This document shows positions 5,001 to 49,246 of a stretch of 64,000 bases of DNA, one piece after another; the first letter of the stretch is position 1, and each line of letters begins with the position of its first letter. Below the pieces are notes generated by a model. That model was not told the origin of the DNA. It saw nothing but the letters and a program-made list of their open reading frames with translations, and made no database searches. The DNA is from Anaerolineae bacterium (GTDB taxonomy: Bacteria > Chloroflexota > Anaerolineae > JAADDB01), in the NCBI GenBank assembly GCA_015490995.1, contig WFWT01000001.1, forward strand, positions 10,021 through 74,020. The letters are read 5' to 3'. The position numbers were made by a program, and so were the translations under genes.

Positions 5001-5675
5001 CTCGTGCGCAAGAGCGTGTGGATCGTGGGAGGGGATGGTTGGGCCTACGATATTGGTTACGGCGGCCTGGACCACGTCCTCGCCAGCAACCGAAACGTCA
5101 ACATCCTTGTCCTTGATACAGAGGTCTACTCCAACACAGGGGGGCAAGCCTCTAAAGCGACCCCTCTCGCTGCCGTAGCCAAGTTCGCCATGGGCGGTAA
5201 AACAACCCCTAAAAAGGACCTAGGGCTCATGGCAATGACATACGGTAACGTGTATGTTGCTCAGGTGGCAATGGGGGCCAACGATGCCCACACCGTTCGC
5301 GCCTTTCTGGAAGCGGAGTCTTACGACGGACCCTCGCTCATCATCGCCTATAGCCACTGTATTGCCCACGGCATTGACATGGCTAAGGGGATGGAACAAC
5401 AGAAGCTCGCAGTGGAATCGGGCTACTGGCCTCTGTTCCGGTTTGACCCGCGCCGAAAAGCCGAGGGTAAGAATCCCTTCCAGTTGGACTCCAAAGCCCC
5501 GCGCATCCCCTTACGTGAGTACATGGAACGAGAGGCACGCTTCCGCATGTTACGCCAGACGAACCCAGAGGCCTTTGAACGCCTCATGGAGGCCGCGCAA
5601 AACGCGGTTCTGGAACGTTGGCGTCTTTACGAGCGTTTGGCGCAGGTCTGGGAACCGGAAAAGGTGATAGCCTAA
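2097..5675 (+). CDS. nifJ: Pyruvate:ferredoxin (flavodoxin) oxidoreductase, single-polypeptide PFOR
   Basis: 1192-aa ORF with a TPP/pyrimidine-binding N-terminus and two CxxCxxCxxxCP ferredoxin motifs (CIQCGKCVLVCP, CTGCTLCVEVCP). Also has the C-terminal TPP GDG motif and the canonical NifJ/PorA length and domain order. Confidence 0.95.
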   Translation: MARRMVTIDGNEAVARVAYMTNEVIAIYPITPASPMGELADAWAAERRPNLWGTVPLVVEMQSEGGAAGAVHGALQTGSLTTTFTASQGLLLMLPNMYKIAGELTSTVFHIATRTVATHALSIFCDHSDVMAARTTGWAILFSSSVQEAHDFALIAQAATLRARVPFIHAFDGFRTSHEINKIVLLSEEDMRALIDDDLVRAHRERALSPDRPFIRGTAQNPDVFFQARERINPFYEATPAIVQEVMDQFAARTGRAYHLFDYVGAADAERVIVIMGSGAETVEETVKHLVAAGDKVGVVKVRLYRPFSVAHFLQVLPPTVRVLTVLDRTKEPGATGEPLYQDVVTAVSEGLTAGTTPFDHMPRILSGRYGLSSKEFTPAMVKGIFDEMTKEQPKHHFTVGIIDDVSYTSIDYDPEFFIESPDVTRAVFYGLGADGTVSANKNSIKIIGEETPYHAQGYFVYDSKKAGARTVSHLRFGPHPIKAPYLIQKANFVAVHQFGFLERYRVLDIAEEGATFLLNAPYSPEEVWDHLPREVQEQIIAKRLKFYVIDAYRLAKELGLGQRINTIMQTCFFAITNIIPLEDAIAHIKEAIRKTYGKRGEVIVRKNFAAVDAALEHLHEVTYPERVTSTHTMPPPVPPEAPQFVQQVTAFMIAEQGDQLPVSAMPVDGTWPSGTAQWEKRNISLDVPVWEPDICIQCGKCVLVCPHAVIRSKVVDPADLKDAPPTFKYVDARFREFKGQGKQYTLQVSVEDCTGCTLCVEVCPAKDKTQPSRKALNMAPKLPILEQERENWRFFLTLPEVPRHNGIKFDTVRNVQLLQPLFEFSGACAGCGETPYLKLLSQLFGDRAYIANATGCSSIYGGNLPTTPWTFNKEGRGPAWSNSLFEDNAEFGLGMRLTIDKQGEYARELVRQLRELIGPDLADAILTADQRDEAGIEAQRERVALLKQRLAGIDHPRVRDLLAVADMLVRKSVWIVGGDGWAYDIGYGGLDHVLASNRNVNILVLDTEVYSNTGGQASKATPLAAVAKFAMGGKTTPKKDLGLMAMTYGNVYVAQVAMGANDAHTVRAFLEAESYDGPSLIIAYSHCIAHGIDMAKGMEQQKLAVESGYWPLFRFDPRRKAEGKNPFQLDSKAPRIPLREYMEREARFRMLRQTNPEAFERLMEAAQNAVLERWRLYERLAQVWEPEKVIA

Positions 5676-21118: not shown

Positions 21119-22582
21119 ATGCACGCGACACAGACGTTAACCCAACAACGTGCTCTGGCAGAACGGTACACACCCATTATTTTTGCCGATGAGGCCGAAC
21201 CCTTCCAGCCAGAACTGGTAGGGTATACAATCTTCCGGCAGAGTGGTCCGTCCCTCTCCTTCCCCCGTACTATTGACGTCCATCCCCCGGTGTGGCGGGT
21301 GATCGAATATGCCATCTGGTGGGATTGGGATATCGGTCACCTCTACGAGTTGGAACACGTGTGGGTATACATTGACGAAGAGGAACGCGTTATCAAAGTA
21401 GAGGCATCCTGGCACGGGACGTATCACGAGATGCGAGTTGACGGGAGTATTCCCCTGGAAGGCACGCACCCCATTGTCTACGCTGAACCTGGCAAACACG
21501 CAATGGCCCCCTCGCCGGAGTGGCATACCCGTCGTGCATCTCAGATCATCCTTGCCTGTACCCGATTGGCCGGTGCTGGTGGAGTGTGGGAAAACGTGCT
21601 TTACGGTAGGCCCGAAGTGAAATCCCCACGTGTCGATCGGTTGGTGCGCACGTATCTACGGCGCAAAGCCTTTGTACCCACGTTCCGCTTTACACGCCAA
21701 ATTGCCGTGAAACCGGATATTCTCGTCCCCTGGCGGGAAATGGAACGCTTAATCCCAGCCCGCCTGCGGGTTTGGGTTCACCACCTGGAGCGCGCTTTGC
21801 CCGAGGAAGAACTTACCATGTTGGCTATCGCACACCGAGGAGCGTCGGCCCACGCACCAGAAAACACCCCTCTTGCCATCCGCTTGGCCGCCAGCATGGG
21901 AGCCGACATGGTGGAAATGGACGTCCGGGTCACAGCTGACGGGGTGCCCATCGTCATCCACGACCACGACCTCAAACGTTTGGCAGGCCGTGGTATCGAC
22001 GTTCACGAATTGACGCTGGAAGAGATTCAGGAAGTTCCGTTGCCGGAAAACCAACACATACCTACCTTGCACGAAGCCCTTTCCCTGTGTCGCGAGCTGG
22101 CCATCGGCGCCTACCTGGAATTGAAGGAGCCGGGCACAGCGATTCCGGCCGCGTTATTGGTCCGTCAGACGGGCATGACCTTTCACACGATTTTTAGTTC
22201 TTTTCACGCCGAGCTGTTGCGGGAAGTGAAACGTGTTCTGCCCCACGCCAGCACAGCTATTCTCTTCCGAGATATTGACGTTGATCCATTAGATCTGGCT
22301 GCGCAGGCGGCGGCGGATTACGTCCATCCTGCTTGGGAAAAAGCGGCGCCCCGTCCCGATTTCCTCCTTTCGCGGGCCTGGGTGGAACGAGTCCACGCCC
22401 AGAATCTGGGCATCATCACTTGGCATGAGGAACGCCCTAACGTAGTACGTGCCCTCCGTCACCTGGGCGTGGACGGCATTTGCAGTGACCGGCCAGATGT
22501 GCTTATGTTGGCCAAAAGTGGTCCCGCACTGCCAGGCAACACCCGATGGCACAACGATGGGTACACGTTGACGGGCAATTGA
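21119..22582 (+). CDS. Two-domain protein: N-terminal 230-aa domain of unknown function fused to a glycerophosphodiester phosphodiesterase (GDPD) domain
   Basis: C-terminal half carries GDPD motifs (IAHRGAS..PENT, EMDVRVTADGVPIVIHD, ELK); the N-terminal half has no family I can recognise. Confidence 0.75.
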   Translation: MHATQTLTQQRALAERYTPIIFADEAEPFQPELVGYTIFRQSGPSLSFPRTIDVHPPVWRVIEYAIWWDWDIGHLYELEHVWVYIDEEERVIKVEASWHGTYHEMRVDGSIPLEGTHPIVYAEPGKHAMAPSPEWHTRRASQIILACTRLAGAGGVWENVLYGRPEVKSPRVDRLVRTYLRRKAFVPTFRFTRQIAVKPDILVPWREMERLIPARLRVWVHHLERALPEEELTMLAIAHRGASAHAPENTPLAIRLAASMGADMVEMDVRVTADGVPIVIHDHDLKRLAGRGIDVHELTLEEIQEVPLPENQHIPTLHEALSLCRELAIGAYLELKEPGTAIPAALLVRQTGMTFHTIFSSFHAELLREVKRVLPHASTAILFRDIDVDPLDLAAQAAADYVHPAWEKAAPRPDFLLSRAWVERVHAQNLGIITWHEERPNVVRALRHLGVDGICSDRPDVLMLAKSGPALPGNTRWHNDGYTLTGN

Positions 22583-26042: not shown

Positions 26043-26636
26043 TTAGGAACCCGAGGGGCTAGGAGGTAACCATGATGTATGAGCGTTGAGACGGGTAGCG
26101 ATGTCCGCGTGAAGCTGTGGGATGACGGTAGCGTACAGGAGTTCCCCGGCCTCTGTGGACTCAGCACCTAAGGTAACTGCAGCTTCAACATCCGCGACAG
26201 GGCCGTGGAAAAACACGAGGCCTTTACCCCCCAGCCCATCGGCCAAACGCACTTCCAGAAGCTGGACCTCCGCTCCTTTCCGACCGGCATCCGCAGCCCG
26301 GATGGCCGCCGCTACCGTGCGTGTTTCGACAATGCCAAGCGCTTCCAACACAGGCGGCCAGCGAGCCCCCTGTTCAACCGCCGCGACTACATCCTCGTGT
26401 ACTCCGGGTAAGTATACCTCACCTACCAGAGCAGCCGCGCCGGCCCGGCGACCGGCTACCAGAGCTTCCTCAACTTCTGCCACCGCGCCGGCCACTAATA
26501 CCAACAGCTTTCCCGGCTGGACAGTGCCCACGTGTACGTGGGCTACCGCCGCTCGTTTCACCATCGCATCGGCTGCTTCAATGCCCACAGCAATGCTGTC
26601 AAACTCCAGCAACGCCAAGGCCGGGTAGGTAGTCAC
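26043..26636 (-). CDS. BMC shell protein, tandem BMC-domain trimer type (BMC-T, PduT-like)
   Basis: Two consecutive PF00936-like BMC domains ([26 protein letters not shown] ... and ALGIVETRTVAAAIRAADAGRKGAEV ...), collinear with PduT. The pore Cys of PduT is replaced (GTVQPGK); GTG start with an AGGAGGGAAGG SD. Confidence 0.8.
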   Translation of the reverse strand: MTTYPALALLEFDSIAVGIEAADAMVKRAAVAHVHVGTVQPGKLLVLVAGAVAEVEEALVAGRRAGAAALVGEVYLPGVHEDVVAAVEQGARWPPVLEALGIVETRTVAAAIRAADAGRKGAEVQLLEVRLADGLGGKGLVFFHGPVADVEAAVTLGAESTEAGELLYATVIPQLHADIATRLNAHTSWLPPSPSGS

Positions 26637-26651: not shown

Positions 26652-28157
26652 TTATACAATACGGAAGTGGTCAACCAGGGTGCAGCGGCGTGGCCGGGCA
26701 AAGGTGCGTGCGTTGGTCAACCCTTCGCCGGTAGGACTGGCGATGCTGAAGGAGGTATATCCTTCCCCGCCATAGCCTAACCCGGCCAAGTTAGGCCCGT
26801 TCTTCACAAAGATCGAGGTGTTTATCTCTCGGGCCATCCGGCTTAGATTATCCAGATTTCGGGACCACATCACAGCCGTATGGCCAAAACCATGTTCGGC
26901 CTCCACGGCCAGCCTGATCGCTTCATCCACATCCCGCACTCGCACAATGGGCAATACCGGCATCAATTGTTCTGTCCACACCAGTGGATGCTCTACAGGC
27001 ACCTCAATGATAATCAGGCGGACACGGTCATCTGCAGGGATGCCCAACTCCTTAAGGAGGGCTGCGGCCGATTTCCCCACCCACGATTTACGAATGACCC
27101 CCGGCCGACGTGGTCCACGCATTTCCTCAAAAATGATCTTCTCTAAACTGCGGACGCGATAGGATGGTAATTCTACGGCGCCGTGAGCTGTCATAGCCTG
27201 TTTCAGGGCATCTGCGACTTGATCTACGACGAACACCTCCTTTTCATCGGTGCATACGATGTTATTGTCAAAGGATGCCCCCATTACTATGCCCTGACCG
27301 GCCTTTTCAATGTCGGCCGTCTCATCTACTACCACGGGGGGATTTCCAGGACCGGCACAGATAGCCCGCTTACCCGAGCGCATGGCCTCTCGCACCACCC
27401 CCGGCCCACCGGTAACCAGCAATAACCGCACACCGGGATGACGCATAAGTGCCTGTGCCGTCTCTATGGTGGGGTCCGCGCACGCGGTGATCAAGTCCGG
27501 CGGTCCCCCTGCCGCTCGGATAGCTCGGTTCAGCAACTGAATCTGGAAGGTGTTCACCTGTTTGGCACCGGGATGTACATTGAATACCACGGCGTTGCCC
27601 GCGCTAATAATGCTGATTGCGTTGTTGATGACCGTAGCCGTGGGGTTGGTGATAGGTGTAATCGCGGCAACCACACCGTACGGAGCCCACTCTGTAAGGG
27701 TCAACCCGTCATCACCACTCCATGCTACCGGCTCTAAAATTTCTGGTCCCGGGGTTTTGGTAGCGACTAGCTCGTTCTTTTTGACCTTATCCTCCACTCG
27801 ACCGAGACCCGTTTCCTCATGGGCCATGCGTGCCAGGAGCTCAGCGTTTTGCAGAGAGACGTCCCGAATGGCCTGAATGATGCGCTTTCGCGCGGCAAGG
27901 CTCAAACGGTTTAGCTTCTGATAAGCCACCCGTGCCGCGCGCACGGCGCTATCCACATCTGGATAGATGCCATCCTCGCCGGAGACCACAGGAGGAGCGA
28001 TTTCTCGGCCAACCCGGCCTACATGTGAAAGGTGAGGAGGTGGCCCTTCCTCCTTCTGCACCTGAGAAGCTCCCGTCACCGTTCGGCCTTCACGCTCCTT
28101 TAAAGCGGTCAGAACACGCTGTGTGATCGCCTCGATAGTACGTTCATCCAAAGGCAT
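26652..28157 (-). CDS. CoA-acylating aldehyde dehydrogenase (PduP/EutE family) with N-terminal encapsulation peptide
   Basis: Catalytic region VCTDEKEV and overall PduP/EutE-like architecture. N-terminal amphipathic helix ERTIEAITQRVLTALKE followed by a Pro/Gly-rich linker, as in BMC-targeted aldehyde dehydrogenases. Confidence 0.88.
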   Translation of the reverse strand: MPLDERTIEAITQRVLTALKEREGRTVTGASQVQKEEGPPPHLSHVGRVGREIAPPVVSGEDGIYPDVDSAVRAARVAYQKLNRLSLAARKRIIQAIRDVSLQNAELLARMAHEETGLGRVEDKVKKNELVATKTPGPEILEPVAWSGDDGLTLTEWAPYGVVAAITPITNPTATVINNAISIISAGNAVVFNVHPGAKQVNTFQIQLLNRAIRAAGGPPDLITACADPTIETAQALMRHPGVRLLLVTGGPGVVREAMRSGKRAICAGPGNPPVVVDETADIEKAGQGIVMGASFDNNIVCTDEKEVFVVDQVADALKQAMTAHGAVELPSYRVRSLEKIIFEEMRGPRRPGVIRKSWVGKSAAALLKELGIPADDRVRLIIIEVPVEHPLVWTEQLMPVLPIVRVRDVDEAIRLAVEAEHGFGHTAVMWSRNLDNLSRMAREINTSIFVKNGPNLAGLGYGGEGYTSFSIASPTGEGLTNARTFARPRRCTLVDHFRIV

Positions 28158-28160
28158 GGG

Positions 28161-28457
28161 TTACTCCGCTCCTTTGCGGTATTTCACCTCACCGTTCACT
28201 TCCCACTCGTCAATGATAGCCATGATCACCGCGTCACAGGGTCGCTTGTCCGTCAGGACGGTCTGGCGGGCTGAGGAGCCCGTGGCATACAACACATATT
28301 CACCAACACCTGCTCCCACTGCGTCCACGGCCACCACATATCCCTCTTTCTCCTGGCCGTTGACGTCTACCTGGCGCAGGAGAAGAAATTTCAACCCCTC
28401 CATCTTTGGGTCCTTCCGGGTTGCGACAACAGTACCCACCACTTTGCCTATGAGCAT
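28161..28457 (-). CDS. BMC vertex protein (BMC-P; EutN/PduN/CcmL family)
   Basis: 98-aa protein [15 protein letters not shown]...LKFLLL matching the EutN/CcmL fold signature. ATG at 28457 with a GTGAGG SD; an alternative GTG at 28469 overlaps the upstream stop. Confidence 0.8.
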
Positions 28458-28465
28458 GGTTCGCC

Positions 28466-29308
28466 TCACTTGGGCTTTAGCTCTATGTCGACGGATGGGG
28501 ATTCGGACGTGGGCGGTTCAACCTGGGCTTTGGGTTGACGTGGTACCCCGGGGCGCGTTGCCACTCGGGGACGCCGGGCGCGCTTGGGTGGAGGCGCCGT
28601 GCGCGCGATAAACGCGCGCAACCGTTCACCTGCCCGGTCCGTCAGCACCGGCCCATGGCCAAAACACGCTACCTGTACATTCTTCAGCCGCCCTAGCTTA
28701 CGCAGTGAATCGCGCACAATCTCAGGCTGAGGGGTGAACACAGCCGGTGGAAGCGCCAGTTTTCCTCTCCGATGAGAAATTACATCCCCCACAAAGAGTA
28801 CTCCTGTCTCCTTGTGATAAAGGGACATATGGCCTGGCGTGTGACCGGGCGTGTGGATGACCTGTAGACCGTTGTCCAGTACCTCGGTATCCACCACCAA
28901 CAGGTCGGGCTGCAAGCGGGGTAGCCGTAACACGGTGCGACTGAGCAAGAAGTAAAGGGGGGTGATCAACACGCCCAGGGGATGTCGGAAATTAGGCCAC
29001 CGATGCCATTTCCCTTTAAAAAACATCGCCTCAATGGCATGCACCACTACGCGCGCGCCTGTCGCCTCTCGGATCACCCGCAACCCACCGGCATGATCGG
29101 TGTCGGCATGGGTGATGAGAATCTCCTTTATGTCTTCTGGGTTAAACCCTGCTTCCTTGATTGCGTTTAGGATCTTCTTACCATGCCATGGAAGGCCGGT
29201 GTCAATGAGGGCGAGATGACCATCCCATCGCCACAAGTAGACGTTTACCGAACTACCGATATCATCAATGTGCCACACATTTTCGGCTATCTCCTTCACG
29301 CGGCTCAC
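28466..29308 (-). CDS. MBL-fold metallo-hydrolase embedded in the BMC operon
   Basis: Beta-lactamase-fold motifs: the metal-binding motif reads [11 protein letters not shown] (H-x-D-x-D-H variant of HxHxDH), plus downstream HTPGHTPGH and a GD..H ligand region. Pro/Arg/Lys-rich C-terminal tail of about 45 aa. Confidence 0.8.
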
Positions 29309-29335: not shown

Positions 29336-29632
29336 TCACGTGTTCTCCACTGCTTCTTGACGACCCAGGGGGAGCACACGGTCCACGTTCGGGTGCGGCC
29401 GCGGAATGACGTGGACAGCAACGACTTCACCCACACGCTCGGCGTTACGTGCACCTGCTTCCACCGCTGCCTTTACCGCCGCCACGTCGCCCCGCACAAT
29501 AGCGGTGACATACCCGCCCCCGGTTTTCTCGTATCCTACCAGTTCAACCTTTGCTGCCTTGACCATAGCATCCGCGGCTTCCACCACGGCGGCAAAACTA
29601 CGGCATTCGATCATACCCAACGCTTCGGCCAT
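29336..29632 (-). CDS. BMC hexamer shell protein (BMC-H, PduA/CcmK-like)
   Basis: MAEALGMIE...[42 protein letters not shown]...VHVIPRPH is a near-canonical BMC-H sequence; ATG at 29632 with an AAGGAGGG SD. Confidence 0.92.
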
Positions 29633-29752
29633 TGTGCCCTCCTTGCCCATTTGAAGTAAAGTTAAAAATGACGGTTCACTCTTTCACAGCCTCATGTTTC
29701 GGGCTAAGAGAACGTCCCATAGGACGAACGGGAGCTCTCCCAATAATCGTGA

Positions 29753-30385
29753 CTATCCGCCGCTCAGGGGACGACCGGTAATGCTTTCGATGGCTTCCAC
29801 GGCTGCCCCATAGCCGGCCATGATATCCCGCTCCTCACCACCCAGGTAAACACGACCAAACGCTCCAAAGGCCCTCACCTCCAAGATGTTGATGTGGGCC
29901 CGCTTCTCGGCCTCGTTGGCAGCAAGGGCTGCATACCCCGCGGGCTCAACTTCTAAGACATAAAGGGTTTGCCCGGGAATAAGCATGTGCCCATGACGCA
30001 TCCGGTTGATCAGCTGGGCTTGAAGTCCGTGTACGTTCCGAATAATTTGGCTGGAAAGAATGCGAGGCTTCAGCCGGTCCTCCTCTTGGAGGCCCAGAGC
30101 CTCCAAAATAGCCACGCCCGCCGCGCGCACATCCGCTTGGGATGGCCCGTGCACTTCTAACAGGCCATACCGTCGTTCCACAATTTGCATGCCCGGGAAC
30201 ACCCCCGTGGCTTTGATGGCAATATCCGTCACCCGGTTGATCTCAATCCCCGGTGAGATCTCCACCCACAAGGAGGCATCGCCGGCCAACGGGAGGAATC
30301 CCTGGGCTACCGTGCCCAGAAAGGCGGCAAATTGGGGTTGCAAGCTATCAATGAACACAAACGACCGGAGTTGCACGTCACTCAT
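29753..30385 (-). CDS. BMC shell protein, double-stacking tandem-domain type (BMC-T, CcmP/CsoS1D-like)
   Basis: 210 aa with two BMC-like halves (...[20 protein letters not shown]... and ...[18 protein letters not shown]...GGEERD...), strongly reminiscent of carboxysomal CcmP. Overlaps the deoC stop by 8 nt. Confidence 0.72.
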
Positions 30386-31292
30386 AGAGGGCCTCCTTTT
30401 GATGGGAAGGGTGTGCTACCTGGGCGGACGCAGAACCGGACTCGGTAACAATTTTCACACCCGCACTGGCACCGATACGTGTGGCGCCGGCGGCGATCAT
30501 TTGCCAGGCAACCTCTGCAGTGCGAATACCACCAGCAGCCTTTACCCCTACTTCTCCACCGACCACGCGACGCATCAGCGCGACATCCTCTACTGTAGCG
30601 CCGCCTGGACCGAACCCGGTGGAGGTTTTTACATAATCGGCTCCTGCAGCTTTCGCCAGCACACAGGCCTCCACTTTCTCTTCATCGGTCAGCAAGGCAG
30701 CTTCGATAATAACCTTCACGATCGCTCCCTGCCGATGGGCCACCTGGACTACAGCAGCGATGTCCTCTGCCACTGCCGCGTACTGCTTGGACTTAAGGCG
30801 GCCGATGTTGATGACCATGTCGATCTCACGTGCGCCATGCGCTATACTCCGCTCGGTCTCATATGCTTTTACCTCGGTCAACGTCGCCCCCAGGGGAAAG
30901 CCCACCACGGTACACACGGCAACATCGCTCCCGGCCAGCAGCTCTCGGCACAGGGCCACCCAGGTGGGATTAACACACACCGCAGCAAAACGGTATTGTT
31001 TAGCTTCCGCACACAAACGACGAACTTGCTCCTCAGTAGCATCCGGTTTGAGCAGAGTGTGGTCAATGTACCGAGCTAAATCGGAAGCCACATTGCCTAC
31101 GCCCAATCGGGCGCTTAACCGATCGGCCCCGGCATTCAACATGGCGCGGGCCGCTTCCGGGCTGTGAACAACGCAATTGCCATCACAGGAGGTACACACT
31201 TCGCAGGACGCGCGACCGTACCGACGCAGCACTTCGTCGGTAATGAGATCGATCAGTTGATCCAAAGTGTACTCCCCAATACGTTCAACCAT
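30378..31292 (-). CDS. deoC: Deoxyribose-phosphate aldolase (DERA) with 80-aa N-terminal extension (encapsulation-peptide-like helix plus CxxCxxCx3C motif)
   Basis: DERA core from [15 protein letters not shown] through the catalytic Lys regions ([14 protein letters not shown]). The N-terminal [18 protein letters not shown] helix and [13 protein letters not shown] motif precede the catalytic domain. Confidence 0.88.
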
Positions 31293-32013
31293 CTTTCCCT
31301 CGAGACCGCATGTAGCGTCGTTCGATTTGCATGATCTTATCCACCCGTCGCCGGTGTCGTCCGCCGCCGTACGGCGTCTCCAACCAGGTTTTCACAATCT
31401 GTTTGGCCAGGTTCGGGCCGATGAGGCCCGCGCCCAGGGTTAGCACGTTCGCGTGGTTGTGTTCACGGCTATTCACCGCGGTAGCTATATCATAGCACAT
31501 CGCAGCACGAACGCCCGGAACTTTGTTACACACCATACAGGAGCCAATCCCCGCGCCGTCGATCATGATGCCATACGTCACTTTACCCTGGGCCACCAGT
31601 TGTGCCACCGCGTACGCGAAGTCCGGATAATCGACGCTTTCCGTACTGTGAGTGCCCACGTCGACACAATCCCACCCCAGCTCTCGCAGATAAGGCTTGA
31701 GGGTTTCTTTCAACGCGTATCCCCCATGATCGGCCCCAATGGCAATCACACGTGCATCCCGAGCCGTGACGTTGGGCACCAGCGTATCTTCCACCAGTTG
31801 AATACCACGCTCGCGTGCCCGCTCGCGGGCCAGAGGGGTAACAATAGCACCAGAGGGGACATGAACCACATCACCTTCCGAGAATCGCTCCACAAAAGCC
31901 GCGTCGATAAGGCGACGGTCCTCAGCGGTATTGTCTGTCACAGCCTGCTCAGCCACGAGGCGACGCACGATCTCTTCCACCAGACGACGGACATCCTCGC
32001 GAGAGGGATTCAC
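31285..32013 (-). CDS. rpiB: Ribose-5-phosphate isomerase B (RpiB/LacAB family) with 90-aa N-terminal extension carrying an encapsulation-peptide-like helix
   Basis: RpiB core begins [14 protein letters not shown] and includes the active-site Cys region [11 protein letters not shown]-terminal [17 protein letters not shown] amphipathic helix; start overlaps the lepB stop (ATGA). Confidence 0.85.
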
Positions 32014-32645
32014 GGCTCCTTCTCTCCAGATGACGGATGTTCAAAGGAGGATGGGTACGTGGCGTGGGGCACGGGACCGAAGCGGTCAAGCGGCCAGAAG
32101 CGCCACACGGCCTTGCCCACAATTAAATTTTGTTTCAACACGCCCCAGCTGTGGGAATCGTTGGAGTTGTTACGATTGTCTCCCAACACGTACACCTCGT
32201 CAGGCCCCACGGTGACCGGCGCGGCCGTGTATGTCGGAGACGCGAGAATATACGGCTCTGGAAGGGGCTGCCCGTTGATGTACACCCGCCCATCCTGGAT
32301 GGCCACCGTTTCCCCGGGCAAACCGATCACGCGCTTGATCAGCGTGCGTCGAGGGTTTAGAGGATATCGGAAGACAATGATATCCCCGCGCTGGGGATGA
32401 CCTTGCCAATACGCCATACGGTATACAAACACGTACTCCCCATCACTCAAGGTTGGCTCCATGCTGGTACCGGAAATACGAAAGTTGATGAACACAGCCC
32501 GCAACGTGAAAAACAAGATGAGGGTAATTAGAAAAACCTCCAACAATTGACGCAGCGCGCGGGCTAACTCCGAGGCTTCGATCTCATCCCCGGCCAGTGT
32601 GATGTACTCTTCCCTCACCTCTGAGATGCGCTCCTGCACGGTCAT
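32010..32645 (-). CDS. lepB: Signal peptidase I
   Basis: GTSMEPTL (catalytic Ser box), RGDIIVF, and GDNRNNSNDSH boxes; ATG at 32645 immediately after the gltX stop. Confidence 0.85.
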   Translation of the reverse strand: MTVQERISEVREEYITLAGDEIEASELARALRQLLEVFLITLILFFTLRAVFINFRISGTSMEPTLSDGEYVFVYRMAYWQGHPQRGDIIVFRYPLNPRRTLIKRVIGLPGETVAIQDGRVYINGQPLPEPYILASPTYTAAPVTVGPDEVYVLGDNRNNSNDSHSWGVLKQNLIVGKAVWRFWPLDRFGPVPHATYPSSFEHPSSGEKEP

Positions 32646-32649
32646 CGGT

Positions 32650-34170
32650 TCACACCGGCGTCGTTGCAATTAAGCGCTCGAGGCGGGCAATGGCCTCGTC
32701 CAAACGGCGCAACGTGGTTTCCCGTCCCAGGGCCAGGATCATGTCAAACAACGGAGGCGTGACTTTCTTTCCCGAGATAGCCACTCGGATAGGGCTGAAC
32801 ATCTGGCCAGCTTTCAAGCCCATGGCAGCTGCTTTGTCACGCAGCGCTTGTTCCAAGGCCTCCGCTTCAAAGGGCACGGTAGCGATAATCTCGCGCGCCG
32901 CACGCAACGCGGCCAAAGTCTCGGTCGCCGAAAGCTTCTTCGCGATCAACATCTCCGGATCATACGTTAAGGACTCGGCATACAAAAAGTCAAGCAGCGC
33001 CGTGGCCTCGGTAAGACGTTTAATCCGTTCCTGCACCGCTGGCAAAAGGCGACGCAACCGCTCGTCCTGACGCAACGTTTGCGCTGGAATTCCCAAATCA
33101 TGACTGAGGAAGGGAATCAGCCGCTCCAACAGCTCCTCTGTAGGGAGAGCACGAATGTAGACGCCGTTCAACCATTCCAGTTTGCTGTAAGGGGCAGCGG
33201 CCGGTTTCGGGTTGATATCCTTAATGTCAAAGTGCCGAACCGCCTCTTCCAGGGTGAATACCTCGGCTTCATCCGGAGGGGTCCACCCAATACGCGCCAA
33301 CCAGTTCACTATCGCTTCCGGCAAATATCCTTGTTCGCGAAAATCGCGCACCAAGATGGGCAAACCACTCTGCGCCGCGCGCCGTTTACTCATCTTGCCC
33401 TTGCCAGAAGGGTCAAGAATTACCGGCAAATGACAGTGAACGGGCATAGGCCACCCGAACGCGTCGTACAAAAGCTTGTGGCGGGGCAAGCTGGGAATCC
33501 ATTCCTCCCCACGGAGCACATGTGTGATTCGCATGTGATGATCGTCGACCACTACGGCCAAGTGATAAGTGGGAAACCCATCAGACTTCAACAACACAAA
33601 GTCATCCAGCGTATGCGCAGCTACCACTACCTCTCCCCGCAAAAGATCTTGAGCCACAACTTGGCCCTCCAGAGGGCTTTTAAAACGGATGACATAAGGC
33701 CGCCCTTCTGCCTCACGACGGGCTACCTCAGCAGGAGAGAGACGACGACAGCGGCGATCGTAGCGCGGCGGTTCACCACGAGCCTGCTGCTCCCGCCGCA
33801 TTTGGTCTAACTCCTCCGGTGTACAGAAACACTTGTACGCGTGCCCCTGCGCCACCAGCCAGTGAGCCCATTCCTGATACAGCTCCAACCGCTCGGATTG
33901 AACATAAGGCCCATAAGGACCACCTACATCAGGCCCTTCATCCCAGGCAAGCCCTAACCACCGCAACCCGTCCATGATGTCCTGTACCGAATCGGGCACG
34001 TAGCGCTTCCTGTCCGTATCTTCTATGCGAAGAACGAAAACCCCACCACAGTGACGCGCGTACAGCCAGTCATAAAGGGCGGTTCGAGCCCCACCTATGT
34101 GCAGGTAGCCTGTCGGGCTAGGTGCAAAACGCACGCGCACGGTTGTGGATATCGTTCCCTCGGATGCCAT
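32650..34170 (-). CDS. gltX: Glutamate--tRNA ligase
   Basis: Class-I HIGH region (PSPTGYLHIGGARTAL) and KMSKR motif; start at 34170 or 34188 (uncertain). Confidence 0.9.
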   Translation of the reverse strand: MASEGTISTTVRVRFAPSPTGYLHIGGARTALYDWLYARHCGGVFVLRIEDTDRKRYVPDSVQDIMDGLRWLGLAWDEGPDVGGPYGPYVQSERLELYQEWAHWLVAQGHAYKCFCTPEELDQMRREQQARGEPPRYDRRCRRLSPAEVARREAEGRPYVIRFKSPLEGQVVAQDLLRGEVVVAAHTLDDFVLLKSDGFPTYHLAVVVDDHHMRITHVLRGEEWIPSLPRHKLLYDAFGWPMPVHCHLPVILDPSGKGKMSKRRAAQSGLPILVRDFREQGYLPEAIVNWLARIGWTPPDEAEVFTLEEAVRHFDIKDINPKPAAAPYSKLEWLNGVYIRALPTEELLERLIPFLSHDLGIPAQTLRQDERLRRLLPAVQERIKRLTEATALLDFLYAESLTYDPEMLIAKKLSATETLAALRAAREIIATVPFEAEALEQALRDKAAAMGLKAGQMFSPIRVAISGKKVTPPLFDMILALGRETTLRRLDEAIARLERLIATTPV

Positions 34171-41922: not shown

Positions 41923-42741
41923 TCAAGGATCACGCAACACGCGTGCCAAACGGTGAGGAAAATCGGTAAAAATACCCGTCACGCCCCACGCGAGCAGGCG
42001 ACGCATGTCCGACTCTTCGTTCACTACCCAAACATTGACCCCACGACCGGCCGCGCGCAGGCGTTGAATGCGCTCTCGTGTGGCCAAGGAGAGGCGCAAA
42101 TTATATGTAGGAAATTCCAACGTATCCCAATCCACCTCTTGCGCTTCACCATACCCTATCAACGCGGCCACCTCCAGGCGAGGATTAGCCTCCCGGACCT
42201 CCCGCAGCCACCGATGGACAAAGGAAGAGATCACCACACACTCCTCCGCCCGTTCCTCGGCAATGAGGGTCAGCACCTTTTCCACCACCGGAAAATCTTC
42301 CATGGGAGGGGGTAAAGCTTTCAGTTCCAAGTTAATGCGCCAGTGATGGGCCTGGGTAAAACGCAACGCCTCTCGAACAGTAGGGATGGATTCCCCCCTG
42401 TACTCGCGTATGTCCTCGGGTGAAACGTGCCCTGCCTGGATCTCACCGAAGGGGTCCTCTTCCACAAACCATGACCCGGCATCCAGGGTATCCAACTCCG
42501 CTTTGGTGAAGGTGGTGACCGTCCAAGGTGCTCGGTGGGGAAAACGCGCGGCCACATTGGTCGTGCGGGCGAGGGAATCGTCGTGCATGAGCACCAGCTC
42601 ACCATCCGCGGTGACGGAGATGTCCACCTCCCACATGTCAGCCCCGGCGGCAAGGGCCTTGCGGGCTGCTGCCAGCGTGTTCTCTGGAGCCAAGCTGCGT
42701 GCCCCGCGATGCGCGATGTTCAGGACACGGCAACGGGTCAT
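41923..42741 (-). CDS. ugpQ: Glycerophosphodiester phosphodiesterase
   Basis: GDPD motifs (NIAHRGARSLAPENT, EVDISVTADGELVLMHD); the ATG overlaps the ugpE stop (ATGA). Confidence 0.85.
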   Translation of the reverse strand: MTRCRVLNIAHRGARSLAPENTLAAARKALAAGADMWEVDISVTADGELVLMHDDSLARTTNVAARFPHRAPWTVTTFTKAELDTLDAGSWFVEEDPFGEIQAGHVSPEDIREYRGESIPTVREALRFTQAHHWRINLELKALPPPMEDFPVVEKVLTLIAEERAEECVVISSFVHRWLREVREANPRLEVAALIGYGEAQEVDWDTLEFPTYNLRLSLATRERIQRLRAAGRGVNVWVVNEESDMRRLLAWGVTGIFTDFPHRLARVLRDP

Positions 42742-43586
42742 TTTTCCTGTCCCAGCGCGAAACCGCGCATCAACTGCTGATGTAGGAAGATGAACACGAT
42801 AAGGGGAGGCAACATTGCCAGCACCGCGCCGGCCATAACCACGCCCCAGTTGGTGGTGTCCTGCACGGCAGTCATGCCTCGCAGGCCCACCTGAATCACC
42901 TGCCGTTCGTTTTCCCGGATGATCACCAACGGCCACAGGTACTGATTCCATACGTAAATGAACTGAATAAGCGCCAGCGCGCCGATCGCGTTCCAGGACA
43001 TGGGCACCAAAATGCTCCACAGGAAACGAAGGGGGCCGGCTCCGTCCACGCGCGCCGCATCAGCCAGCTCACCGGGTATGCTGGCAAAGTGTTGCCGGAA
43101 GAGAAACACTCCCGTAGCACTGGCCATAAAGGGCACAATGAGGGCCAGATAACTGTTGCTCCACCCCAGGTCCGACACCAAATTGAACAGAGCCACGATC
43201 AGGATTTCCGTGGGCATCATGAGAGTGAACAGGATGAAGTAAAAGACCCCATCCTGAAGGGGATAATCAAAGTACACCAGGGCAAGCCCTGCCAGCAGGG
43301 AGAGAATCGTCTTGGCGAATGTGACAGCCAGAGCCACGATGAAACTGTTTTTCATGAACATGCCCAGTTCAAACGAATACCAGGCAGTGCGGTAATTGTC
43401 CAGCAGCGCCGTACCTGGTCCCAGGATCGGCGGATAATGGAAAACCTGCGCGCGCGTTTGGGTCGATTTCGAAACGGCAAAAAGTACCGGCACCAACACC
43501 AGGAAACACACCACAATCAGCGCAATGTGGGTCAGAATTTCGTTGCGCACCTTCCGCCGCACGTGAAACTTCAGCGCCATCATCAC
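42738..43586 (-). CDS. ugpE: ABC transporter permease (UgpE-like)
   Basis: 6-TM ABC permease with an EAA loop (ELADAARVDGAGPLRFL). Confidence 0.82.
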   Translation of the reverse strand: MMMALKFHVRRKVRNEILTHIALIVVCFLVLVPVLFAVSKSTQTRAQVFHYPPILGPGTALLDNYRTAWYSFELGMFMKNSFIVALAVTFAKTILSLLAGLALVYFDYPLQDGVFYFILFTLMMPTEILIVALFNLVSDLGWSNSYLALIVPFMASATGVFLFRQHFASIPGELADAARVDGAGPLRFLWSILVPMSWNAIGALALIQFIYVWNQYLWPLVIIRENERQVIQVGLRGMTAVQDTTNWGVVMAGAVLAMLPPLIVFIFLHQQLMRGFALGQEK

Positions 43587-47350: not shown

Positions 47351-49246
47351 TCAGAGGCCTAGGCGATCGGCCACCCAAGCAAGGCCCACCCCTTCCAGGG
47401 TGGCCCGTGTGGGGTTACCCGTGGCCACATCCCACCCGTTTAAGGCATAATATACGTCCTTTGCCTGTTCCAGCTCCGCCTCGCTCAGGCGAATACCATC
47501 GCTCTTTCCGCCTCTTAACGCTTCCTTGAAGAATCGCTTGGGCAACGTGTCCGCCTCTCGGCCAAACCCTTCCCGGGCGTTAAATGCCCGCAGGAGATTT
47601 AGACGCCGGCGTCCCACCTCCATTAACTCGTACAAGCTCACGTTCCATCCGGTGATCGCGTTAAGCGCCTCCACCAACTGTAAAGCATCGTACAGCTGCC
47701 AGGCCGGTCCAAAGACGAACTGACACACGTTGACTGTGTCCAACGCGCTGTACAACCACTGGGTGCGTACGGCAAAGGTGACCTTTTCACCGTTTAACAC
47801 CTTTGGCGCTACCGGATCCTTTAGATCCAGCGTGGCCATGCGTTCCGGATACTGCACGTAGGCAGGATCGTGCTCGCTGGACTGGTGATCTGCGCCGAAG
47901 GGGTTCACCGCGTAGATCAGGCCTAACGAGCGTTTGAGGTGGGGCATGTGTGCGGGCACTTCCTGCCCCTTGACCGCCACCACAAACTGCTCTGTACCGC
48001 GACCGATCAGCTGGGCTGCCCTGGCCGAGCCTTCCGCCAGGATGTGGCCAAAACCCTCCCGTTTGGCGATCTTCTCCACCATTTGTACCATGGCCTCCGC
48101 GTTGCCGAACCGCAGCTCCACCCCATCGGTGTCCTCCTTTGTCAACAGCCCGACCTCGAAACACTCCATGGCCCAGGCAATGGTCGCGCCACAGGAGATG
48201 GTGTCCATACCGTACATGTTACACAGCTGGTTAGCATAGGCGATCGCTTCCAAGTCATCCACGCCGCAATACGCGCCAAAGGTGGCGAGCGTCTCGTATT
48301 CGGGGCCGCCATACCGGGGATGAACCTGATACCGACCATCGGTGATCTCCACGACACGCTTACATCGGACCACACAACCATAACAGGTATCCCGCTTTTT
48401 CAGGATTTCCTCGTACATGCGTTCGCCGGAGATCTGATCGGCGCCCTCAAAGTATCCCGATTGCCAGTTCCGTGTGGGCAATCCACCGACCTTATTTTGG
48501 GGCACTGTCACTACGGCTGTGCCGAAGAGGGCGAGGCCGGCAGCGTCCGAACTATCCAGATGTTGCGCTCCCCAACGGGCCATACCCTTCAGGCGGTCCG
48601 GGTGGGCCACCTTGGGCTTCCATCGATTGGAGCCCGTGGCCACAATGGCCTTTAACCGTTTACTCCCCATGACCGCGCCCATCCCCGTTCGGCCGTTGGC
48701 CCGGTTAGCCATGTTCATGATGGCCGCAAAGCGTACCCTGTTCTCTCCCGCCGGACCAACCTGTAGCACTTCCAGCCTTTTCACCCCTAACTCTTCCTTG
48801 ATGAGGTCCTCCACCTCTCCGGTCACCCTGTCCCAGAGATGGGACGCATCGCGCAATTCCGCTTCCCCATCATGAAGCCACAGATACACCGGCCGTCGGG
48901 CTTGTCCCCGAATGATAACGGCGTCAAAACCCGCGAACTTCAGTTCGGCCGGAAAATAACCGCCACACTGCGAGTCCCCGACCATGCCTGTCAGCGGAGA
49001 TTTGGCGGCCACGGTCAGACGGGACTGTCCAGAAATCGGCACGCCGGCCATAGGCCCCACAGCCATGGCCAATACGTTCTCTGCCGCAAAGGGGTCCACC
49101 CCCGCCGGCATGTCACGCAGGAGATAATAAAGGCACAGCGCACTTCCTCCCATGTACTTGCGATAAAACGCCTCCTCGGGGATCTCCACACGGAGCTCAC
49201 CGGTGGTTAGATCGACGTGTAGGATACGGCCGTGGAATCCGTACAT
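47351..49246 (-). CDS. Aldehyde:ferredoxin oxidoreductase (tungsten/molybdopterin AOR family)
   Basis: AOR N-terminal domain (MYGFHGRILHVDLTTGE) through the conserved C-terminal cluster/pterin-binding domains (e.g. DTISCG); AGGAGG SD. Confidence 0.9.
   Translation of the reverse strand: MYGFHGRILHVDLTTGELRVEIPEEAFYRKYMGGSALCLYYLLRDMPAGVDPFAAENVLAMAVGPMAGVPISGQSRLTVAAKSPLTGMVGDSQCGGYFPAELKFAGFDAVIIRGQARRPVYLWLHDGEAELRDASHLWDRVTGEVEDLIKEELGVKRLEVLQVGPAGENRVRFAAIMNMANRANGRTGMGAVMGSKRLKAIVATGSNRWKPKVAHPDRLKGMARWGAQHLDSSDAAGLALFGTAVVTVPQNKVGGLPTRNWQSGYFEGADQISGERMYEEILKKRDTCYGCVVRCKRVVEITDGRYQVHPRYGGPEYETLATFGAYCGVDDLEAIAYANQLCNMYGMDTISCGATIAWAMECFEVGLLTKEDTDGVELRFGNAEAMVQMVEKIAKREGFGHILAEGSARAAQLIGRGTEQFVVAVKGQEVPAHMPHLKRSLGLIYAVNPFGADHQSSEHDPAYVQYPERMATLDLKDPVAPKVLNGEKVTFAVRTQWLYSALDTVNVCQFVFGPAWQLYDALQLVEALNAITGWNVSLYELMEVGRRRLNLLRAFNAREGFGREADTLPKRFFKEALRGGKSDGIRLSEAELEQAKDVYYALNGWDVATGNPTRATLEGVGLAWVADRLGL

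Follow-up and report, generated by a model that had tools for sequence, protein, structure and literature searches.

The shell protein encoded at positions 29753-30385 of the DNA analysed here (a 64 kb stretch of an Anaerolineae contig, hereafter the window) is probably the CcmP-like-clade BMC-Tdp of a Chloroflexota SPU3-type metabolosome, with a stacked, gated pore that would be the likeliest route for large phosphorylated anions. The open reading frame is a real gene, and its product (hereafter Tdp) is a tandem permuted BMC protein of the CcmP/CsoS1D type. Its family, fold, gate residues, clade and operon context are established in this study.

Both this type of Tdp and the idea of a sugar-phosphate conduit are already published: CcmP-like Tdp proteins are described in SPU2 and SPU3 loci, with sugar phosphates as the proposed permeant (Sutter 2021, Dwyer 2024). 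Because protein type and role are in the literature, the finding is an ordinary one. The locus is a compact, eight-gene example, with four shell genes, of an organelle type that is very widespread and as yet uncharacterised, and it could for that reason serve well as a construct in tests of what a Tdp pore transports. Its local oddities are a single BMC-P in 64 kb, an inserted MBL-fold hydrolase and a phenylalanine, Phe19, at the position of a pocket histidine.

The Tdp gene and its operon

The reading frame runs from an ATG at 30385 to a stop codon at 29753-29755 on the minus strand, the strand having been left unstated in the initial annotation. Upstream lies DeoC, whose stop overlaps the start of this frame by 8 nt (ATGAGTGA). 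The operon has the order RpiB-DeoC-Tdp-BMC-H-MBL hydrolase-BMC-P-AldDH-Ts and comprises the following features.

31285-32013, minus strand: RpiB-type isomerase with an N-terminal extension of about 89 residues (encapsulation-peptide-like helix); PF02502 over residues 90-227, TIGR00689
30378-31292, minus strand: deoxyribose-phosphate aldolase (DERA/DeoC), the signature enzyme; TIGR00126, 296 bits, residues 72-282
29753-30385, minus strand: BMC-Tdp, CcmP-like tandem circularly permuted BMC-domain shell protein; 210 residues plus stop
30077-30385, minus strand: N-terminal permuted BMC domain of Tdp, residues 1-103, which holds the gating hairpin; from alignment to the SeCcmP N-terminal BMC domain and model secondary structure
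29756-30076, minus strand: C-terminal permuted BMC domain of Tdp, residues 104-210; from alignment to the CcmP C-terminal BMC domain, with a weak PF00936 match at residues 143-199
29336-29650, minus strand: BMC-H hexamer shell protein; PF00936, 108 bits, with KAAK and PRPH interface motifs in the translation
28466-29308, minus strand: MBL-fold metallo-hydrolase between BMC-H and BMC-P; PF00753, 117.5 bits
28161-28469, minus strand: BMC-P pentamer (vertex) protein; PF03319, 106.7 bits
26652-28157, minus strand: AldDH; NF011927, 659 bits, PF00171 from residue 66
26043-26636, minus strand: PduT-like BMC-Ts, single-layer tandem BMC protein; PF00936 in two stretches, 112.6 bits

In a PDB phmmer search, Tdp aligned without gaps to CcmP of S. 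elongatus (SeCcmP) over residues 4-207 (4HT5, E = 8.4e-85; 5LSR, E = 9.5e-85), with a full-length identity of 64-67%; the other matches included HO-5816 (3.9e-71) and CsoS1D (5.9e-56). The precomputed Pfam family of the protein is PF27545 (CsoS1D_N), and the NCBIfam model NF053796, 'beta-carboxysome protein CcmP', scores it at a marginal 342.5 bits, its cutoff being 340. The classical PF00936 model matches weakly and below its cutoff (16.7 bits), in the C-terminal half only. That the frame might encode no BMC protein, as this sub-cutoff score could be read, was ruled out by the PDB, NCBIfam and PF27545 matches. PF27545, the CcmP alignment and superposition of an AF2 model place two circularly permuted BMC domains in the one chain. 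The same protein occurs, identical, in two independent assemblies, and more than 8000 database proteins match it at E <= 1e-10, far beyond chance.

The translations of AldDH, DeoC and RpiB begin with amphipathic helices; the extension of DeoC, about 70 residues long, also carries a CxxCxxCxxxC motif, and its Pfam domain starts at residue 75. The order RpiB-DeoC-Tdp-H-P-AldDH-Ts is kept in most of 80 related loci from several phyla, among which the position of Tdp is strictly conserved. With Tdp inside a DeoC/RpiB/AldDH operon, the assignment to a catabolic sugar-phosphate BMC made in the initial annotation is borne out. The MBL-fold gene occupies the same operon position in a subset of the related loci. 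Family and PDB searches with its product returned generic relatives only (B3 lactamases, lactonases, glyoxalase II), and the protein has no recognisable encapsulation peptide. A hairpin in the gap between Tdp and BMC-H (29701-29737) is unexceptional, with a z of -1.23, and promoter and terminator scans were at background; a regulatory RNA or terminator between the two genes was rejected on these grounds.

Tdp is encoded alongside BMC-H and BMC-P in the same operon, and a tblastn search of the 64 kb returned no second BMC-P, satellite copies outside the window being possible. The shell had been described as having single BMC-H and BMC-P genes, and the one BMC-P does stand for the 64 kb, but the shell also contains Tdp and Ts. 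The latter gene had been overlooked. Its product matches the PduT structures 3NWG, 3PAC and 3N79 (E ~1e-30), is devoid of cysteine and has Gln in place of the Fe-S ligand of PduT (vCPGK versus vQPGK). The shell of this operon is therefore one of four genes in four classes, and EUT3 loci are described with an equal shell-gene count. Because BMC-Ts is a fourth shell gene, the earlier statement that this shell is among the most minimal known fails. BMC-P copy number varies among the 39 loci whose flanking sequence was long enough, a set that includes the contig of this window (L001): three copies in 26, two in 6 and one in 7.

Fold, clade and gate residues

The AF2 monomer model of Tdp (pLDDT 83.7, pTM 0.84) superimposes on CcmP with a TM of 0.87-0.90 in Foldseek. 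Its best 33 PDB matches belong exclusively to the Tdp family (TM 0.78-0.90) and comprise CcmP, HO-5816, HO-3341, two CsoS1D, MSM0271 and MSM0275, a limited literature search having found no paper on the last two. Among them are chains of the double layer in the HO shell, solved intact (5V74, 6MZU). EutL, PduB and EtuB come next, with a TM of at most 0.37, and the PDB sequence search gave no match to a single-layer BMC-T at E <= 1. A single-layer identity of the PduT/EutL/PduB kind was ruled out by the absence of such a sequence match and by the low TM of EutL, PduB and EtuB.

An NJ tree with 300 bootstraps places the cyanobacterial CcmPs together with SPU-type sequences on one side of a split supported at 0.92. 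The other side holds HO T2/T3, CsoS1D, MSM0271 and 20 other 50%-cluster representatives. In a first run that contained chimeric or partial 50%-cluster representatives, support for the clade was 0.60; it rose to 0.92 once seven such sequences had been dropped and the remainder realigned. Phylogeny thus puts Tdp on the double-layer side, in the CcmP-like clade and away from single-layer BMC-T proteins. This placement, the full-length CcmP alignment, PF27545 and the fold all uphold the initial annotation of a CcmP/CsoS1D-type BMC-T protein.

The residues that are known or proposed to govern the pore in characterised homologues lie at these positions.

30365-30367, minus strand: Arg7, aligned with CsoS1D R57; conserved in 80/80 related loci
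30329-30331, minus strand: Phe19 (TTT), where SeCcmP has the ligand-pocket residue His18; a lineage-specific substitution by alignment
30173-30178, minus strand: Glu70-Arg71 pore-gating pair (codons GAA CGA), read from the sequence
30002-30004, minus strand: Arg128, aligned with SeCcmP Arg127 and CsoS1D R178; conserved in 80/80 related loci
29852-29854, minus strand: Arg178, aligned with CsoS1D R229; conserved in 80/80 related loci

The pair E70-R71 aligns with Glu69/Arg70 of SeCcmP and E120/R121 of CsoS1D, the Glu-Arg pair described as the pore gate (PMC5853799, PMC13316943). It is kept in all 80 related loci, in 13/13 cyanobacterial CcmPs and in 4/4 other solved Tdp structures, and the gating residues are reported to be universally conserved across Tdp (Sutter 2021). 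The gate implied by the initial reading of a gated pore is thus present and conserved. The air-lock residues of CsoS1D are R57, E120, R121, R178 and R229 (PMC13316943). All five have counterparts in Tdp (R7, E70, R71, R128 and R178), each invariant among the 80 loci. In CsoS1D, R57 recruits at the pore entrance in a published simulation and R229 modulates the Glu ring barrier (PMC13316943). The Arg127 position of SeCcmP lies at the trimer-trimer interface and in the inner chamber, its interface role coming from PMC5853799. The SeCcmP trimer-trimer contacts Arg127, Arg129, Gly23, Thr24, Ala26 and Gly131 (PMC5853799) are kept in Tdp as R128, R130, G24, T25, A27 and G132, all of which are invariant across the related loci except A27, which is nearly so.

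These residues bear on whether Tdp stacks and gates at all in this shell. Tdp proteins are minor components of carboxysomes, at some 3-5 trimers per particle according to work cited in PMC13316943, and Tdp might here be a single-layer structural tile or a low-use relic. We consider this quite unlikely. The invariance of gate and interface residues in 80 loci of several phyla argues for selection on a gated, stacked form. The strict conservation of operon position and the double layers that HO-5816 and HO-3341 form in an intact metabolosome shell (5V74, 6MZU) also speak against it.

The ligand pocket differs. His18 of SeCcmP is a pocket residue with a proposed part in ligand-linked gating (PMC5853799), and its position holds His in 68/80 related loci and in 13/13 cyanobacterial CcmPs. 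Two relatives that are 90-92% identical to Tdp (P0002, P0003) also have the His. Because the residue is Phe here, CcmP-style ligand control may not apply to Tdp.

Read as an NCBIfam 'equivalog', the protein would be named a true beta-carboxysome CcmP, which would fit its NF053796 score just over the cutoff and CcmP as its best PDB match. We give this reading next to no credence, as it is ruled out by context, taxonomy, phylogeny and the His18 position. The 64 kb window contains no RuBisCO, carbonic anhydrase or CcmK/L/M/N/O, and translation of the gene is coupled to that of DeoC. Non-cyanobacterial MAGs, those of Chloroflexota, Gemmatimonadota and Acidimicrobiia among them, are the source of the relatives with 71-83% identity, and the 13 cyanobacterial CcmPs are monophyletic (bootstrap 1.0), with the Tdp of this locus outside. 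NF053796 scores a non-carboxysomal Tdp above its cutoff, and pipelines can therefore mislabel SPU shell proteins as carboxysomal.

Proposed role of the pore

Stacking, pore size and gating are assigned here by analogy with homologues, and the permeant is inferred. Three Tdp chains would assemble into a pseudohexameric trimer and take their place as a tile next to the BMC-H hexamers of the shell; a second trimer would stack on the first with the two concave faces together, enclosing a small chamber. The central pore of each trimer is expected to measure about 13-14 A, with the Glu70-Arg71 pair as the latch that opens and closes it, so that the pair of trimers could work as an air-lock. Within the organelle, DERA would cleave deoxyribose-5-P to glyceraldehyde-3-P and acetaldehyde, and the acylating aldehyde dehydrogenase would trap the acetaldehyde as acetyl-CoA, both enzymes carrying encapsulation-type N-terminal extensions. 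Tdp would then be the most likely route for anionic phosphorylated molecules too big for the hexamer pore. Candidate permeants are sugar phosphates and, because the window lacks PTAC, alcohol dehydrogenase and PduS, possibly acetyl-CoA/CoA and NAD(H). Ribose-5-P, which the initial annotation had named as a substrate beside deoxyribose-5-P, is doubtful because Asp replaces the catalytic Cys of RpiB (GIMIDGAG versus GIVICGTG in PDB 3HE8); the one SPU RPI to have been assayed, from SPU6, isomerised R5P to a negligible extent.

Tdp could instead serve mainly as a cofactor gate, for acetyl-CoA exit and exchange of CoA and NAD+/NADH, with BMC-H admitting deoxyribose-5-P and glyceraldehyde-3-P through its own pore. 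The preferred reading and this one overlap and differ in the permeant alone. Neither the operon nor the rest of the 64 kb contains PTAC (PF06130/PF01515), alcohol dehydrogenase (PF00465) or PduS, and the usual metabolosome enzymes therefore cannot recycle CoA and NAD+ inside. SPU loci without PTAC, of which this locus is a case, typically encode a Tdp, perhaps as an acetyl-CoA exit, and the BMC-H pore could admit dR5P as well, in which case the substrate might do without Tdp (Dwyer 2024). For deoxyribose-5-P, Tdp is accordingly a candidate conduit and not the obvious one named in the initial annotation. Large cofactors have in addition been suggested as permeants of some Tdp clades (Sutter 2021). 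However, kinship to carboxysomal CcmP and the conserved electropositive phosphate-capture residues suit sugar phosphates equally, and the cysteine-less Ts could carry cofactors too. On balance, a gate mainly for cofactors is a credible reading that we hold to be the less probable one, and a route for large phosphorylated anions in general remains the preferred description.

A more speculative proposal, and one that we regard as improbable, is that the locus represents a reduced SPU3 sub-lineage in which a single BMC-P, a recruited MBL-fold hydrolase, the lack of PTAC, AlcDH and PduS and the change of the pocket His to Phe go together with altered cofactor handling. If this were so, acetyl-CoA/CoA and NAD(H) would have to pass through Tdp; alternatively, the MBL-fold enzyme might act inside, with a thioester or phosphoester as a possible substrate, and close the cycle.

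Comparison with known systems

By published description and our own tree, the locus matches the SPU3 type. SPU3 loci encode AldDh and pfam01791 (DERA) with N-terminal encapsulation peptides and pfam02502 (RPI), and their shells contain one BMC-H, a CcmP-like Tdp, a Ts that lacks a pore cysteine and has no PduS partner, and a BMC-P triplet of the green, grey and orange clades (Sutter 2021). The present locus likewise has AldDh and DERA with N-terminal extensions and an RPI (Pfam domains from residues 66, 75 and 90), one BMC-H, a Tdp that falls in the CcmP-like clade of our NJ tree (0.92), and a cysteine-less Ts without PduS. The phyla also agree, Chloroflexi, Gemmatimonadetes, Actinobacteria, Acidobacteria and Marinimicrobia being among them. 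It differs in having one BMC-P in this 64 kb where the published type has a triplet, and in the MBL-fold hydrolase between BMC-H and BMC-P, which is absent from the published description. The Chloroflexi-only type, SPU6, has a C-terminal encapsulation peptide on AldDh and a blue-clade Tdp, and was therefore rejected in view of the N-terminal AldDH extension and CcmP-like Tdp found here.

SeCcmP (S. elongatus PCC 7942; 4HT5, 5LSR, 5LT5) is of equal length to Tdp, with the ungapped alignment and close fold described above, and its Glu-Arg gate, the interface residues Arg127 and Arg129, and Gln66 are kept. Residues that change from SeCcmP to Tdp include His18 to Phe19, Thr27 to Gln28, Phe67 to Ile68 and Ile172 to Phe173. 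SeCcmP belongs to the CO2-fixing beta-carboxysome of another phylum, whereas Tdp belongs to a catabolic organelle and, as the nucleotide sequence indicates, is encoded within the main operon, coupled to the signature enzyme.

BMC-T2 (Hoch_5816) and BMC-T3 (Hoch_3341) of Haliangium ochraceum (5V74, 5V75, 5V76, 6MZU) are, like Tdp, non-carboxysomal. They share 54-58% identity with it, a TM of 0.84-0.90 and the same gate residues, and their structures show directly that a metabolosome shell, once assembled, can contain double-layer tiles. In contrast to Tdp, they lie across the 0.92 split, and the HO shell draws on three paralogues each of BMC-T and BMC-P.

CsoS1D of the alpha-carboxysome (3F56, 3FCH, 7DHQ) resembles Tdp in architecture, gate and the five air-lock residues, with a TM of 0.85-0.86, but it is only 46-50% identical, belongs to the other major clade and has its own N-terminal extension (the match begins at chain residue 77-78) and one-residue insertion (N180). 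PMC13316943 cites deletion of CsoS1D in carboxysomes as giving no strong phenotype. PduT, EutL and PduB are tandem BMC-domain trimers too, and a PduT-like one is encoded in this operon beside the double-layer type.

The CcmP-like tandem BMC protein and its operon

The minus-strand open reading frame that runs from 30385 to 29753 encodes a BMC-Tdp protein of 210 residues, a permuted tandem BMC protein (Tdp) of the double-stacking CsoS1D/CcmP type, and there is firm evidence for both the gene and its family assignment. Residues 4-207 align without gaps to CcmP of Synechococcus elongatus PCC 7942 (SeCcmP), the best match in the PDB (4HT5, E 8.4e-85; 5LSR, 9.5e-85). Weaker matches were, in order, the Haliangium ochraceum (HO) BMC-T proteins HO-5816 and HO-3341 (about 1e-71), CsoS1D of H. 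neapolitanus (7DHQ, 2e-60) and of Prochlorococcus (3F56, 6e-56), and, from the mycobacterial RMM compartment, MSM0275 and MSM0271. Single-layer BMC-T proteins did not come up in this search at E <= 1. The precomputed Pfam family is PF27545 (CsoS1D_N), and the classical BMC model PF00936 gives a weak match to the C-terminal half only. An identical protein is encoded in two independent assemblies, including a metagenome scaffold of 93.6 kb, and more than 8000 database proteins match it at E <= 1e-10. The assignment made in the initial annotation is therefore upheld, the NCBIfam CcmP equivalog model NF053796 also scoring above its cutoff (342.5 bits; cutoff 340). Since a non-carboxysomal Tdp lies just above this threshold, automated annotation can mislabel shell proteins of sugar-phosphate-utilising (SPU) loci as carboxysome CcmP.

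The predicted fold agrees with the sequence evidence. An AlphaFold2 monomer model from a 32-sequence alignment had a mean pLDDT of 83.7 and a pTM of 0.84, and its best 33 Foldseek matches in the PDB all belonged to the Tdp sequence family. These included CcmP (TM 0.87-0.90), HO-5816 and HO-3341 with chains from the intact HO shell and a "BMC-TD focused" cryo-EM map, two CsoS1D proteins, the "double ringed" MSM0271, and MSM0275. The next matches, EutL, PduB and EtuB, reached a TM of at most 0.37.

The operon is a head-to-tail series of eight minus-strand genes:

31285-32013, minus, RpiB-type isomerase (Pfam domain from residue 90)
30378-31292, minus, DeoC, or DERA (TIGR00126, 296 bits; domain from about residue 72)
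29753-30385, minus, BMC-Tdp, the protein under study
29336-29650, minus, BMC-H
28466-29308, minus, MBL-fold hydrolase, between BMC-H and BMC-P
28161-28469, minus, BMC-P
26652-28157, minus, acylating aldehyde dehydrogenase (domain from residue 66)
26043-26636, minus, BMC-Ts, a second tandem BMC protein (single-layer, PduT type; PDB 3NWG, 3PAC and 3N79 at about 1e-30)

The Tdp start codon (ATG) and the DeoC stop codon share an 8-nt overlap, ATGAGTGA, which makes translational coupling of the two genes probable. The 102-nt spacer between Tdp and BMC-H holds a 15-bp hairpin, GGGAGAGCUCCCGUUCGUCCUAUGGGACGUUCUCUUA (29701-29737, minus strand); the fold energy of this spacer is unexceptional (z -1.23). 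The BMC-Ts protein has no cysteines and carries Gln at the 4Fe-4S ligand position of PduT, so that a PduT-type cluster is impossible. No further shell genes were found in the window by tblastn with all shell proteins as queries.

Gating residues and phylogenetic placement

Scanning one genome per species yielded 80 related loci, with 71-83% identity to the window Tdp. In SeCcmP, an inter-subunit salt bridge between Glu69 and Arg70 shuts the pore, and both residues swing aside to open it (PMC5853799); a 2026 simulation study of CsoS1D describes a three-stage air-lock path lined by five conserved residues, R57, E120, R121, R178 and R229 (PMC13316943). In the alignment these correspond to R7, E70, R71, R128 and R178 of the window Tdp. 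All five are present there, as a gated protein of the kind initially proposed would have them, and all are invariant across the 80 related loci and 13 of 13 cyanobacterial sequences. The trimer-trimer contacts of SeCcmP (Arg127 and Arg129, together with backbone contacts from Gly23, Thr24, Ala26 and Gly131; PMC5853799) map to R128, R130, G24, T25, A27 and G132, all of them invariant or close to it. Stacking of the Tdp trimers is an inference from homologues.

His18 of SeCcmP, a pocket residue conserved in beta-carboxysomal CcmP, has a proposed part in ligand-linked gating (PMC5853799). Its position is occupied by Phe19 in the window Tdp and by His in most related loci (68 of 80), as well as in two close relatives, P0002 and P0003 (90-92% identical). 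Other Tdp proteins have Leu (CsoS1D and both HO proteins) or Phe (MSM0271) at this position, and Phe19 is thus within the family range.

For phylogenetic placement, the window Tdp was aligned with the Tdp sequences of the 80 loci, 12 named cyanobacterial CcmPs, five solved structures (sequences reconstructed from HMMER alignments) and those 50%-cluster representatives that were full-length, taken from an exhaustive HMMER search that gave 1097 clusters (E <= 0.001). Neighbor-joining (NJ) trees were built from Kimura-corrected distances. A first run that included chimeric representatives gave weaker clade support than the cleaned run of 119 sequences, 202 columns and 300 bootstraps. In the latter, the cyanobacterial CcmPs were monophyletic (bootstrap 1.0), and together with the SPU-type sequences they were split at 0.92 from HO-5816 and HO-3341 (HO-T2 and HO-T3), CsoS1D, MSM0271 and 20 other representatives. 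The SPU-type sequences alone were not monophyletic (0.19); the window Tdp grouped with those of L031, L042, L051 and L061 (0.69), related loci that all contain the MBL gene. By these groupings the window Tdp is CcmP-like, yet no cyanobacterial CcmP; neither the PDB sequence search nor the fold comparison puts it with single-layer BMC-T proteins. This placement is in line with the published tree, whose CcmP-containing clade comprises the Tdp proteins of HO, MIC3, SPU2 and SPU3 loci (Sutter 2021).

Enzymes and candidate permeants

The best-supported reading is that Tdp would serve as a gated double-trimer tile in an SPU-type metabolosome. DERA would split deoxyribose-5-P into glyceraldehyde-3-P and acetaldehyde, the latter of which would be converted to acetyl-CoA by the aldehyde dehydrogenase; this scheme, and the DERA activity of one SPU enzyme, are already published (Sutter 2021, Dwyer 2024). 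The DeoC/RpiB/AldDH operon and its fit to the published SPU3 type bear out the sugar-phosphate context first suggested. Ribose-5-P, also named initially as a substrate, is doubtful, as is its isomerisation, because Asp replaces the catalytic Cys in the window RpiB (GIMIDGAG versus GIVICGTG in PDB 3HE8). All SPU RPIs have this Asp, and the only one to be assayed, an SPU6 enzyme, showed negligible isomerisation of R5P (Dwyer 2024).

Outside the operon, the Pfam annotation of the window covers PFOR, TCA-cycle enzymes, cobalamin and NAD biosynthesis, glutamine synthetase, aldehyde:ferredoxin oxidoreductase and chemotaxis genes; RuBisCO, carbonic anhydrase, Ccm proteins, PTAC, iron-type alcohol dehydrogenase and PduS are all missing from it. 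Sugar phosphates have been proposed as the Tdp permeant by analogy with carboxysomal RuBP and 3-PGA (Sutter 2021, Dwyer 2024). Cofactors are at least as plausible for the window, because its locus is without PTAC, AlcDH and PduS: loci without PTAC may need Tdp as the exit for acetyl-CoA, and the hexamer pore also fits dR5P (Dwyer 2024). No nucleoside phosphorylase or phosphopentomutase to feed deoxyribose-5-P was seen in the window.

The N-terminal extension of DERA (30378-31292, minus strand, residues ~1-70) has an amphipathic helix followed by a four-cysteine motif, CxxCxxCxxxC, which may form a metal or Fe-S site. Four-Cys motifs spaced CxxCxxxCxxxC or CxCxxxxCxxxC turn up in some of 72 related DeoC genes and not in the rest; Dwyer 2024 describes the extension, not the cysteines. 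Elsewhere in the window are a tungsten-type aldehyde:ferredoxin oxidoreductase (47351-49246, minus), a pyruvate:ferredoxin oxidoreductase (2097-5675, plus) and two glycerophosphodiester phosphodiesterases (21119-22582, plus; 41923-43020, minus), both of which adjoin ABC sugar-type transporters.

Related loci and known locus types

The hosts of the 80 loci are Chloroflexota (Anaerolineae, Caldilineae, Ardenticatenales), Gemmatimonadota, Acidimicrobiia, Fidelibacterota, Zixibacteria, Thermoanaerobaculia and one Polyangiaceae MAG. The order RpiB-DeoC-Tdp-BMC-H-BMC-P-AldDH-Ts is kept in most, usually with one or two more BMC-P genes after it. Among 39 loci with enough flank, the window's contig included, three BMC-P genes were found in 26, two in 6 and one in 7; these seven include the window's own contig and three MBL-containing relatives. 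The 64 kb hold one BMC-P, and satellite copies may lie beyond the window.

The MBL gene occupies the same position in L003-L006, L031, L042, L051 and L061, a Caldilineae/Anaerolineae subset. An inorganic pyrophosphatase gene precedes it in all six MBL loci inspected and is absent from the window. The window MBL-fold protein has a unique Pro/Arg-rich C-terminal tail and only generic relatives (lactamase, lactonase, glyoxalase II). Between DeoC and Tdp, the closest MBL-type relatives carry a conserved ORF of ~90 aa (L006, 7578-7838; L042, 7601-7882; L051, 7490-7768; L061, 3551-3838) that contains a CxxC motif and matches no Pfam family; it is absent from the window, where DeoC overlaps Tdp directly. 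A signal peptidase I gene (32010-32669, minus strand) overlaps the RpiB start by 4 nt. A gene for this peptidase also directly precedes the BMC operon in many related Chloroflexota loci, with roughly 30 of the 80 loci having one (e.g. L003, L006, L023, L052, L060, L068, L080-L082), a conserved association with a cytoplasmic organelle operon that has no ready explanation.

SPU6, the Chloroflexi-only type, does not match: its AldDh carries the EP at the C-terminus, and its Tdp belongs to the blue clade. The window locus fits the description of SPU3 almost point for point: AldDh and pfam01791, each with an N-terminal EP, and pfam02502; a shell with one BMC-H, a Tdp of the CcmP-like clade and a Ts without a PduS partner or pore cysteine; and occurrence in Acidobacteria, Actinobacteria, Chloroflexi, Gemmatimonadetes, Marinimicrobia and others (Sutter 2021). 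It differs in its extra MBL-fold gene and in its single BMC-P, whereas SPU3 has a triplet and all SPU loci are described with at least that number (Dwyer 2024). The shell had been ranked among the most minimal known, a view that overlooked the Ts gene at 26043-26636; with it, the shell comprises four genes of four classes, and EUT3 loci are likewise described with four shell genes. Both the Tdp and its proposed role are already in the literature, and the lineage-specific features of the window locus, Phe19, the single BMC-P and the MBL insert, are minor.
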